This document shows, one piece after another, positions 1 to 3,472 of a stretch of DNA of 64,000 nt. The notes beneath the pieces were generated by a model. It had not been told where the DNA came from. It worked only from the letters and a program-made list of their open reading frames with translations, and searched no databases. The first letter of the stretch is position 1. The number at the start of each line of letters is the position of its first letter. Position numbers and translations under genes: made by a program. The stretch is from Escherichia coli (GTDB lineage Bacteria > Pseudomonadota > Gammaproteobacteria > Enterobacterales > Enterobacteriaceae), in the NCBI RefSeq assembly GCF_029227855.1, contig NZ_CP074356.1; one strand, written 5' to 3'.

Positions 1-1
1 C

Positions 2-352
2 ATTCTCATCGCCATGTTGCTGAACTCACTGGTGGGGATTGTGCTATTCGTCTCCATTTTATGGTTTAAACAAGGGATGGCAGGGTTTGGCGAACTGGTT
101 TCCAGCGTGCGTTGGTGGACACTGATTCCTGGCTTGCTGGGATCATTTTTTGTCTTTGCCAGTATCAGCGGATATCAAAACGTTGGCGCGGCAACGACCA
201 TTGCAGTACTGGTCGCCAGTCAGTTGATTGGAGGGCTGGCGCTGGATATTTTGCGTAGCCATGGTGTGCCGCTGCGGGCGCTAATCGGCCCAATTTGTGG
301 CGCGATTTTACTCGTGGTTGGCGCCTGGCTGGTGGCCAGGCGCACATTTTAA
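2..352 (+). CDS. ydcZ: Inner membrane protein YdcZ (DUF606), C-terminal part; 5' end lies outside the window
   Basis: ORF 14..352 is hydrophobic and matches the remembered YdcZ C-terminus; reading frame is open from the window edge; synteny with ydcY. Confidence 0.8.
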   Translation: MLIAMLLNSLVGIVLFVSILWFKQGMAGFGELVSSVRWWTLIPGLLGSFFVFASISGYQNVGAATTIAVLVASQLIGGLALDILRSHGVPLRALIGPICGAILLVVGAWLVARRTF

Positions 353-586
353 TCAGAGGATGGTGCCACCTTTGGTTAACTGTTCGTGGCGCGCTTCCAT
401 ATCTTCTTTATGTTTGCGACCGTGATGGGCGATCGCTGTGCGCAGACGCTGCTGCTGGGTATAGCGTTCTTCCCGACTTAACTCCGCATCATCGCTCAGG
501 GCGATTAATAATTCGTTCATATGGGCAATGACGCTCTCTTCAATCGCGGCATCCACGCGCGCGATGACTTCATCCAGATGCGACAT
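353..586 (-). CDS. ydcY: Small protein YdcY (77 aa), function unknown
   Basis: 77-aa ORF with length and position as in K-12, between ydcZ and ortT. Confidence 0.8.
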   Translation of the reverse strand: MSHLDEVIARVDAAIEESVIAHMNELLIALSDDAELSREERYTQQQRLRTAIAHHGRKHKEDMEARHEQLTKGGTIL

Positions 587-671
587 ACTTTCTCCTTAGC
601 CACTTGTGAAATTTATCGATTCATCCAAATGATATAAGTCTGCGTGGTGCCGTCAAGCCAGTGAGTAAGAT

Positions 672-845
672 TTAAAACAGTGAAAACAACAGCGCCACCG
701 GGAAACTCATCGGCCATGTTGCCCCCACCAGAAAGGCGCTTAAGAAACGGATGCGTTTCTTATCGTGAGAAAGAAACCAGGTGATAAGAAATGAGATTGC
801 TGCCATAACCGCATAAAAAACAAGCATATGTTGATAGAGAGACAT
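672..845 (-). CDS. ortT: Orphan membrane toxin OrtT (YdcX), 57 aa
   Basis: ORF 672..893; internal ATG at 845 gives the 57-aa hydrophobic protein MSLYQHMLVFYAVMAAISFL... matching OrtT. Confidence 0.8.
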   Translation of the reverse strand: MSLYQHMLVFYAVMAAISFLITWFLSHDKKRIRFLSAFLVGATWPMSFPVALLFSLF

Positions 846-1039
846 GTACGGGCGTCCAGCCAGATGAATAAAACGCGCGCAAATATGCGTCATTTTTTGA
901 CGTACATCAAGTTTTTTAACCGGTTTGAGAAAAAAACATCAAACAGCAACTTGCCCTTATCCATCTTCAGAATGAGTATTATTGCGGATTTTCTTAACCC
1001 GTACTATACACATAGGGGCAATGATAAAAGGTGGCAAAA

Positions 1040-1135
1040 ATGAATGTTTCCAGTAGAACTGTAGTACTGATAAATGTCTTTGCTGCTGTTGGTTTGTTTA
1101 CTCTTATCTCTATGAGATTTGGCTGGTTTATTTGA
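1040..1135 (+). CDS. yncL: Small inner-membrane protein YncL (31 aa)
   Basis: ATG at 1040 preceded by AGGTGG; translates to MNVSSRTVVLINVFAAVGLFTLISMRFGWFI, one predicted TM helix; below the 60-aa cut-off of the ORF track. Confidence 0.7.
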   Translation: MNVSSRTVVLINVFAAVGLFTLISMRFGWFI

Positions 1136-1157
1136 TGTAGTGATTTTGCACGCAGCA

Positions 1158-1192
1158 CGTACTGTCAGAGAAATCAGTGCTCTGACAGTACG
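1158..1192. terminator. 13-bp perfect-stem hairpin between convergent yncL and patD; putative bidirectional terminator or REP-like structure
   Basis: cgtactgtcagag / ctctgacagtacg inverted repeat with 9-nt loop, seen directly; no clear U-tract on either side. Confidence 0.35.
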
Positions 1193-1231
1193 CAAGATCT
1201 TCTCATACTCTTACGATCTGCAATATTATCC

Positions 1232-2656
1232 TTAATGTTTAACCATGACGTGGCGGACGACGGTGTAATCCTCCAGCCCATAAAGTGACATATCCTTGCC
1301 GTAACCAGAAAGTTTCTGCCCACCGTGCGGCATTTCACTTACCAGCATGAAATGGGTATTGACCCAGGTACAACCATATTGCAGCCGCGCGCTGACGCGA
1401 TGCGCCCTGCCCACATCTTTCGTCCATACCGAGGATGCAAGTCCGTACTGGCTGTCATTTGCCCAGTTTACCACCTGTTCTTCATTGTCGAAGAGCGTAA
1501 CACTCACTACTGGACCAAATACCTCTTTTTGCACGATGGCATCGTCCTGTAATGCGCCAGCCAGTAGCGTCGGCGCATAGTAATAGCCATTACCCTTGCG
1601 CTTTTCACCGCCAGTGATCACTTTGATGTGCCCTGTCGCTTTCGCCTCTTCTACCGCCTTGCTGACGCGTTCGAGATGCGCCAGCGAACTTAAAGGTCCA
1701 AGCTCCGTAGAGTCGTCATCCGGCGCACCCGATTTTAACGTTGCCACTGCAGCACCAAGTTTTTCCACCAGCGTATCGTAAATGCCTTTTTGCGCATAGA
1801 TCCGACAAGCCGCTGTACAATCCTGTCCGGCATTGTAATAGCCAAAAGTACGTACACCTTCGACCACCGCTTCAATATCCGCATCATCAAAAACTATCAC
1901 TGGCGCTTTGCCACCAAGTTCCATATGAGTACGCTTTATGGACGGCGCAGTATGGCTGATGATGTGTTCCCCAGTGGCGATAGAGCCCGTCAGCGACACC
2001 ATCCGCACTTTAGGATGTCCGGTCAGCGGATCGCCCACCGTTTTGCCTCTGCCAAACAGTACGTTAATCACGCCTGCCGGGAAGATATCTTTCGCCAGCT
2101 CTGCCAACTTCAACGCGGTCAGCGGGGTAATTTCTGATGGTTTAAGCACTACGCAGTTTCCTGCCGCCAGCGCCGGAGCCAGTTTCCACGCGGCCATCAT
2201 CAGCGGATAATTCCACGGTGCGATCGAAGCCACGACCCCCAACGGATCGCGACGGATCATCGAAGTATGACCTTTAAGATATTCACCTGCCGCCAGACCA
2301 TTCAGACAGCGCGCCGCACCAGCGAAAAAGCGAAAAACATCGACAATCGCCGGGATTTCATCATTGAACGCACTATGCAGCGGTTTGCCACAATTACGGG
2401 ACTCCAGTTCGGCAAAAACCTGACCATTTTCTTCGATAACATCAGCCAGTTTCAGCAGACATTCCGCACGCACTTTCGGCGTGGTTTGCCCCCATTCGGC
2501 AAATGCTGCATCTGCCGCGCGCACAGCAGCATCGACCTGCTCTGCGGATGCCTCGGCAATCTCCAGTAAAACGTCCCCCGTTGCCGGATTATAGACAGGC
2601 TGTTTTTCCCCTTCGCCGCTAACCAGTTCTCCGTTAATCAGTAAATTATGTTGCAT
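1232..2656 (-). CDS. patD: Gamma-aminobutyraldehyde dehydrogenase PatD (YdcW), 474 aa
   Basis: Full-length aldehyde dehydrogenase ORF with the catalytic Cys/Glu region (ELGGKAP... GQDCTA); sequence recognised as PatD. Confidence 0.95.
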
Positions 2657-2677
2657 AGCATATTCCTGTATCAGTGG

Positions 2678-3472
2678 TTATTGACCATTGTCGCCTTCGC
2701 GGGTTAGCCACCAGGCCCCCAGGATCGGCAAGGTTGTTACCAACATAACCAGCAGTGCCACCACGTTGGTTACCGGTACATCACGCGGTCGCCCAAGCTG
2801 ATTGAGCAACCACAACGGTAACGTTCGTTCATGACCTGCCGTAAAGGTCGTCACGATGATTTCATCGAACGACAAGGCAAACGCCAGCATTCCTCCTGCC
2901 AGTAGCGCCGAACTGAGATTCGGCAACACTACGTAGCGGAAGGTTTGCCAGCCATTGGCCCCAAGATCCATTGATGCCTCAACCAGACTCCACGAGGTGC
3001 GGCGAAAACGGGCGATGACATTGTTAAACACCACCACTACGCAAAAAGTCGCATGGCCGACCACGATGGTGAAAAATCCCGGCTCCAGATTGATGGTTTT
3101 AAAGGCGGTTAATAGCACCAGACCAGTGACAATGCCCGGCAGCGCAATGGGCAGCAGCAGTAACAGCGAAATGGCATTTTTGCCGAAAAAGTCTCGTCGC
3201 CACAGCGCAGCAGCTGCCAGCGTCCCTAACACCAGCGCGATTAATGTCGCCAGCGCTGCCACTTTAAGTGACAGTGTCACTGCATCAAGAATATCACTAC
3301 GCTGTGCTGCCACGCTAAACCAGCGCAGCGTCAGGCCTTGCGGTGGAAAACTAAACGCCGCATCTTCAGTGTTAAACGCATAGGCGGCGATAATCAGGAT
3401 GGGAAAATGTAGGAAAACCACGCCGCCCCAGGCCGCCAGTTTGAGGAAAAACGGTGCGCGTTCAGAGTGCAT
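2678..3472 (-). CDS. ydcV: ABC transporter permease YdcV (264 aa)
   Basis: Multi-TM ORF with ABC permease signature; synteny in the ydcSTUV-patD operon. Confidence 0.9.

Follow-up and report, generated by a model that had tools for sequence, protein, structure and literature searches.

The hairpin that lies between yncL and patD in the 64-kb stretch of Escherichia coli DNA analyzed here (the window) is quite probably the stem-loop at the 3' terminus of a short yncL mRNA (monocistronic, about 180 nt), which would persist after Rho-dependent termination, and not a Rho-independent terminator. As such, it is most likely an ordinary element of a previously described kind. The region itself is the already annotated, known ortT–yncL gene pair, and the finding has to be considered as already known, because every component of it has been described and the 3' end of the hairpin is present in a public table. 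The features on which the argument is built are the following:

672-845, minus strand: ortT (ydcX), 57 aa, membrane-damaging 'orphan' toxin of the GhoT/OrtT family
882-911, minus strand: promoter-like motif upstream of ortT, CTTGAT-N17-GCATATT, putative promoter
1004-1010, plus strand: putative yncL -10 element CTATACA of the sigma-S type, with C at -13
1040-1135, plus strand: yncL, 31 aa, single-pass stress-response membrane protein (NF000537)
1158-1192, plus strand: hairpin with a perfect 13-bp stem and a 9-nt loop, the probable 3'-terminal stem-loop of the yncL mRNA
1193-1252, plus strand: C-rich, G-poor tract of rut-like composition, a putative rut site
1195, plus strand: 3' end of the steady-state yncL RNA (Term-seq, Adams et al. 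2021)
1232-2656, minus strand: patD (ydcW), gamma-aminobutyraldehyde dehydrogenase, convergent neighbor (RefSeq annotation)

The first 2.7 kb of the window correspond to the ydcZ-ydcY-ortT / yncL / patD neighborhood of E. coli, as given by the RefSeq annotation under the match. A 1.2-kb query taken around the locus showed 100% identity to one clinical strain and 97.8% to K-12. It was matched in 5,415 of the 5,426 complete E. coli genomes, and beneath this match RefSeq names ydcZ, ydcY, ortT, yncL and patD. The ortT and yncL genes are divergent, with 194 nt between them. The original prediction, made from the sequence alone, had proposed a divergent arrangement of two proteins of 57 and 31 residues: all of its coordinates were confirmed by translation, and the names that it gave to both genes are those indicated by the profile matches (97.1 bits to PF10753 for ortT, 72.5 bits to NF000537 for yncL) and by the RefSeq labels. 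It had also stated that yncL was absent from the list of open reading frames, and this is indeed the case. The gene is nested within a 34-aa, GTG-started ORF (1031-1135) that is seen only when the length cut-off is lowered, and it is missing from the list because this host ORF falls below the usual cut-off.

The translation of yncL is MNVSSRTVVLINVFAAVGLFTLISMRFGWFI, which exceeds the cut-off of 35 bits of the NCBIfam equivalog model NF000537 (YncL) and covers residues 1-30 of 30. Pfam entry PF28073 is recorded on YncL orthologs, and a Pfam search with the protein encoded here gave no match. The family is narrow, since a phmmer search of YncL against a representative library produced only nine hits. 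The gene was found in Escherichia, Citrobacter, Superficieibacter and two more enterobacterial lineages; tblastn searches and inspection of small ORFs revealed no yncL beside ortT in Enterobacter, Cedecea, Pseudescherichia or Siccibacter. Tagged YncL protein was reportedly detected in the 2008 work of Hemm and coworkers. Induction of YncL in stationary phase and under stress is attributed to Hemm et al. 2008/2010 in a passage of PMC12542507, and the overproduction of the protein depolarizes the membrane and condenses the nucleoid (PMC12542507). In Salmonella, the yncL transcript corresponds to STnc1110, a 'coding sRNA' described by Lago et al. 2017, which is a short stationary-phase transcript whose expression requires sigma-S (PMC5437024). 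The yncL mRNA has additionally been recovered as a RIL-seq or TRIC-seq partner of RprA and KilS. Upstream of the gene, CGTACTATAC is kept in E. coli, Citrobacter and the lineage represented by loci L083-85, and the CTATACA at 1004-1010 is likely, from its sequence, to be a -10 element of the sigma-S type. As a separate observation, one database entry, the 82-aa protein P0002, continues beyond the stop codon of yncL, across the hairpin and on into antisense patD sequence; its probable origin is a variant stop codon or a gene-calling error in a single assembly.

The hairpin downstream of yncL was confirmed to the base: its arms, CGTACTGTCAGAG at 1158-1170 and CTCTGACAGTACG at 1180-1192, are 100% complementary, form the announced perfect 13-bp stem, in which 7 of the 13 pairs are G-C, and enclose a loop of 9 nt. 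The predicted free energies are -21.6 kcal/mol (plus strand) and -22.5 kcal/mol (minus strand), with z values relative to dinucleotide shuffles of -4.4 and -3.6, respectively. A comparable inverted repeat was found in none of 100 shuffles of the 64-kb window, and inverted repeats with an 11-nt exact seed number only five in the window itself. When the predicted yncL transcript of 180 nt is folded, the terminal stem is the sole structure to survive in the centroid. The claim that the hairpin lacks a U-tract also held, and it did so for both strands: the 8 nt past the stem (CAAGATCT on plus, TGCTGCGT on minus) contain only two or three T and no T run, the post-stem sequence (CAAGAUCU on plus, UGCUGCGU on minus) lacks the U-tract of an intrinsic terminator, and a terminator scan made no call at 1158-1192. 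A scan of positions 1-3000 against Rfam (E <= 10) returned nothing at the hairpin or at yncL. The hairpin is present in one copy in the window and, among the 5,426 E. coli genomes searched, it lies at one place per genome in 5,411 (median 1, maximum 2). Membership in a REP/BIME, ERIC or MITE-like repeat family, which would require many copies, was therefore rejected.

A second perfect hairpin without a U-tract, of 17 bp and with a 7-nt loop, occurs at 62591-62631, where it overlaps the stop codon of a 301-aa ORF (61688-62593), and is possibly a further protective 3' stem-loop belonging to the class to which we assign that of yncL.

The position of the RNA 3' end can be read from published data. 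A Term-seq 3' end at MG1655 position 1517039, minus strand, is recorded by Adams et al. 2021 (eLife, PMC7815308, supplementary file 1); it appears three times across three condition sheets and gathers 75,265 reads in LB at OD 0.4 and 536,300 reads in LB at OD 2.0. In the sequence column of this table, the 3' end is position 51, a reading that was verified with the entry for the sgrS terminator. Mapped through NC_000913.3, position 1517039 falls at 1195 of the window, the second A of ...CAGTACG-CAA, that is, 3 nt past the last base of the stem. A Term-seq check at the hairpin had been suggested with the original prediction, and these published data provide it, revealing a strong 3' end. The authors labeled it 'antisense patD', and not yncL, the sole reason being that its distance from the yncL stop codon exceeds 50 nt. 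The yncL 3' end is seven-fold more common at OD 2.0 than at OD 0.4, and this stationary-phase increase fits the sigma-S dependence of Salmonella yncL and the conserved CTATAC -10-like element.

The same work also contains information about Rho. Its supplementary file 2 reports a Rho termination region with a peak at 1516753, minus strand, which corresponds approximately to position 1482 of the window, inside patD and antisense to it, about 290 nt beyond the hairpin and on the strand of yncL. Upstream and downstream reads at this peak were 220 and 9 without bicyclomycin, and 106 and 72 with it (PMC7815308). The Rho score is 16.6 (p = 5e-21), a value calculated over 800-nt windows that do not pin the origin of the read-through to yncL (PMC7815308). 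The read-through would begin at yncL, although the extra downstream reads obtained with bicyclomycin could stem from antisense promoters inside patD, so that the yncL transcript itself counts as putatively Rho-dependent. The sequence that follows the stem is of the composition expected for Rho loading: in the 60 nt past it, the C/G ratio is 1.9 in E. coli, 2.5 in a second Escherichia lineage (L003) and 2.4-2.9 in three Citrobacter species, and an alignment shows that GATCTTCYCA is conserved within this C-rich tract. From this composition, the tract at 1193-1252 is a candidate rut site.

All these data can be integrated by reference to the work of Dar and Sorek 2018 (NAR 46:6797; PMC6061677), who described Rho-dependent transcripts of E. 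coli with precise 3' ends located right after stable stem-loops devoid of a U-tract. In that class, the stems guard the RNA against PNPase and RNase II, and the rut site is found immediately downstream (PMC6061677). The yncL hairpin resembles its members point by point: it is stable and lacks a U-rich tail, its 3' end is found at +3 nt, a C-rich, G-poor tract comes directly after it (a likeness of composition only), and a region of bicyclomycin-sensitive termination is located farther downstream on the yncL strand. Nothing demonstrably different was noticed at yncL, where exonuclease protection and Rho loading would operate by analogy, and it is this match that leads to the explanation of the hairpin as a protective 3' stem-loop. 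The hairpin had been described as unusual in the original prediction, and this was overstated, as stems without a U-tract are the normal 3' ends of Rho-terminated E. coli transcripts (PMC6061677).

According to this explanation, the formation of the yncL 3' end would involve five steps. RNA polymerase would first pass through the hairpin, and Rho would then load on the C-rich, G-poor untranslated RNA just past the stem, as its composition suggests. In the third step, Rho would halt transcription a few hundred nucleotides further on, antisense to patD, which is where the published, low-resolution bicyclomycin data place termination. The tail would subsequently be trimmed by 3'-to-5' exonucleases up to the stable stem, by analogy with the transcripts of Dar and Sorek 2018, and what would finally remain is the precise and abundant 3' end whose position, 3 nt past the stem, is given by Term-seq. 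The stem would thereby set both the 3' end and the stability of the yncL mRNA, a form of stabilization that would suit a sigma-S-dependent stress transcript accumulating in stationary phase. Being a perfect palindrome, the stem is predicted to fold equally well on the minus strand and could likewise act as a cap for incoming patD transcripts. It could also cause some hairpin-dependent pausing or termination by itself, even without a U-tract, by virtue of its 13 bp.

The most probable of the alternatives is that the hairpin is a non-canonical intrinsic terminator that lacks a U-tract and directly stops yncL transcription, possibly acting bidirectionally for yncL and patD. The stem-loop is very stable, it is found just past a stop codon and between convergent genes, and a sharp 3' end lies right past the stem. 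Furthermore, the yncL loci L083-85 hold a true, canonical bidirectional terminator at the equivalent position. The G+C-rich stem-loop of an intrinsic terminator can be recognized here in the perfect 13-bp stem with seven G-C pairs and -21.6 kcal/mol; however, only 7 of the 13 pairs are G-C, the 9-nt loop is above the typical size, and the hairpin has neither a U-tract, with so few T on either strand, nor an A-tract. Moreover, intrinsic termination usually leaves the 3' end 7-9 nt past the stem and inside the U-tract, whereas that of yncL is found at 3 nt. The negative terminator scan, the presence of a bicyclomycin-sensitive region downstream on the same strand and the overlap of the patD and yncL transcripts further argue against direct termination at the hairpin, and we regard it as unlikely.

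The overlap mentioned above derives from the ExcludonFinder list, in which patD-yncL is a convergent pair of overlapping transcripts; such an overlap is to be expected if the hairpin does not stop the polymerase. It is also the basis for a different proposal, that of a convergent 'excludon', in which patD/yncL double-stranded RNA would be cut by RNase III, leading to mutual repression, and the hairpin would be incidental or would serve as an RNase entry site. In its favor, patD-yncL is among the convergent excludons of E. coli in that list, and the abundance of yncL mRNA is altered in RNase E or RNase III mutants, according to tiling arrays and a northern blot. 

Loci containing patD were taken from 80 species, yncL and ortT were located in them, and further yncL loci were added by means of an exact peptide look-up. 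A stable hairpin was found 20-45 nt past the yncL stop codon in every yncL locus collected. In the second Escherichia lineage (L003), the stem is the same with a compensatory change of T-A to C-G, and in Citrobacter a homologous stem, TGGCAGAGAG...CTCTCTGCCA, is found about 30 nt past the stop codon, with a change of T-A to G-C and a loop of 4-6 nt. The alleles of the E. coli hairpin differ only in the loop, or have the stem extended to 14 bp. In an alignment of nine sequences, 92% of the cells are paired, compared with 27-49% when the partner strand is slid. Compensatory changes affect both sides in 2 of the 13 pairs, a count reached in 112 of 500 shuffles. With two independent events in nine sequences, the support that covariation lends to the predicted pairing is modest but consistent.

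In Citrobacter, the hairpin and patD are 2.3 kb apart, with an AraC-type regulator and an MFS transporter encoded between them, and about 1,170 E. coli genomes have 1.3 kb of inserted DNA between an unchanged hairpin and patD. Since the hairpin is kept next to yncL in both cases despite the distance to patD, the comparison assigns it to yncL and not to patD. The same two observations weigh against the convergent excludon: in Citrobacter the hairpin is retained with yncL even though a different gene converges on it, and the E. coli genomes bearing the insert conserve it in front of a displaced patD. In addition, a stem of 13 bp is short for RNase III. Mutual repression through double-stranded RNA is consequently judged quite unlikely as the explanation of the hairpin, although it is complementary to a protective stem-loop and does not exclude it.

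The comparison with more distant yncL loci is also informative. At the position of the hairpin, locus L021 has an unrelated GC-rich stem and locus L086 an unrelated 11-bp stem, both without a U-tract, while in loci L083-85 the canonical bidirectional intrinsic terminator found there carries U6. What is conserved across these sequences is, hence, a 'stable stem just after yncL' and not one particular sequence, and the occurrence of unrelated stems at the same place points to a function at the RNA 3' end and not to a DNA-binding site. The idea that the palindrome acts as DNA, either as the site of a dimeric regulator or as the relic of a mobile element or a recombination site, could appeal to the perfect 13-bp inverted repeat and to an indel hotspot located 28-50 bp downstream (with an O-acetyltransferase in E. 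coli and AraC plus MFS genes in Citrobacter), but it is very improbable in view of the single copy per genome, which leaves no REP-like or MITE-like family, of a spacer that ranges from 4 to 9 nt between arms that change by compensatory substitutions, of the unrelated hairpins in distant lineages, of an insertion junction that does not involve the hairpin and of the abundant RNA 3' end at the stem.

The hotspot deserves some description of its own. It spans positions 1213-1245 (L002 4900-6270), and the AT-rich insertion that occupies it in about 1,170 of 5,415 E. coli genomes carries the gene for a 'CatB-related O-acetyltransferase'. On either side of this insertion lies one copy of an imperfect direct repeat of 12-13 bp, CTTAATATTTAC / CTTAATGTTTAAC, which includes the patD stop codon. 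The possibility that the hairpin constitutes the border of the insertion was rejected, because the junction sits at the patD stop codon and has this separate direct repeat. At the equivalent place, Citrobacter carries either the AraC-type regulator and the MFS transporter or small ORFs, and it retains a CCTTAATATGTAAC remnant beside yncL.

The protective 3' stem-loop remains, therefore, the preferred explanation, and its consequences are limited: the result matters little beyond tidying up one intergenic region of E. coli. An unannotated hairpin is assigned to yncL as the stem-loop at the 3' end of its mRNA, and a strong public Term-seq peak filed as 'antisense patD' is re-attributed to the yncL 3' UTR. 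For annotation pipelines, it illustrates that a stable stem lacking a U-tract, when preceded by a stop codon and continued by a C-rich tail, should be taken as the end of a Rho-terminated transcript, and not as an anomaly. A functional link behind the conserved pairing of ortT and yncL is possible, the rest being ordinary and essentially known.

The identification of ortT is correct. Residues 4-57 of the protein cover positions 1-55 of the 55 in the Pfam profile PF10753 (Toxin_GhoT_OrtT), for which the cut-off is 22.1 bits, the RefSeq product is 'orphan toxin OrtT', and the protein encoded here is 98% identical to that of K-12, whose membrane-damaging toxicity was demonstrated experimentally by Islam et al. 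2015 (PMC4344625). These authors reported that OrtT was not neutralized by YdcY, GhoS, flanking intergenic RNA or a genomic library, and the YncL protein was not among the candidates directly assayed in their search for an antitoxin (PMC4344625). OrtT is a homolog of GhoT, the toxin of the GhoT/GhoS type V toxin-antitoxin system, with which it shares PF10753 and the capacity to damage membranes. In contrast to ghoT, however, ortT has no adjacent GhoS-like gene: its neighbors are ydcY and yncL, no ghoS is annotated at the locus, and yncL encodes another small membrane-depolarizing protein.

The mechanical ORF list prolongs ortT to an ATG at 893, which would result in a protein of 73 aa. This start was discarded, since the extension to 893 has in-frame stops in Citrobacter, Enterobacter and other orthologs, and the 57-aa start is therefore correct. 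Upstream of it, the motif CTTGAT-N17-GCATATT is invariant in E. coli, Citrobacter, Enterobacter, Cedecea, Pseudescherichia, Siccibacter, Superficieibacter and one more lineage. With at least 8 enterobacterial genera sharing it, the motif is strongly conserved. It has some likeness to the sigma-70 and the sigma-32 consensus and, on the basis of this conservation, is probably the ortT promoter; a simple sigma-70 scan made no call at 882-911. Two minor signals overlap the putative promoter and leader of ortT. One is a weak hairpin followed by a T run at 873-890 on the plus strand, which was flagged as terminator-like, and the other is a minor Term-seq 3' end of 848 reads, near position 877 of the minus strand and 32 nt ahead of the start codon of ortT, to which Adams et al. 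gave an intrinsic-terminator score of 3.2 and no Rho dependence.

Whether the divergent pair constitutes a functional module, and not a chance neighborhood, is doubtful. In all five lineages that have yncL, the gene is found about 180-195 nt upstream of ortT and in divergent orientation, the sequence downstream of yncL being highly variable across them, and both OrtT and YncL are tiny membrane-depolarizing proteins. It might be envisaged that YncL modulates OrtT, as an antagonist or as a potentiator; alternatively, the link might consist of co-regulation from back-to-back stress promoters. The functional link is weakly supported because many genera have ortT without yncL. If true, it would be relevant to the way in which an 'orphan' membrane toxin is restrained. 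A tandem duplication of ortT was also observed in Enterobacter sp. Bisph1 (L006 5611-6051) and in one MAG (L013 5597-6015), where the two copies share about 60-86% identity with E. coli OrtT and yncL is absent.

Finally, at the other end of the neighborhood, a 10-bp GC-rich stem followed by a T run is found at 321-343, at the very end of ydcZ and facing ydcY, and Adams et al. list nearby a 'primary ydcY / antisense ydcZ' 3' end (MG1655 1517918, plus strand). This element is an ordinary terminator common to the convergent pair ydcZ/ydcY.
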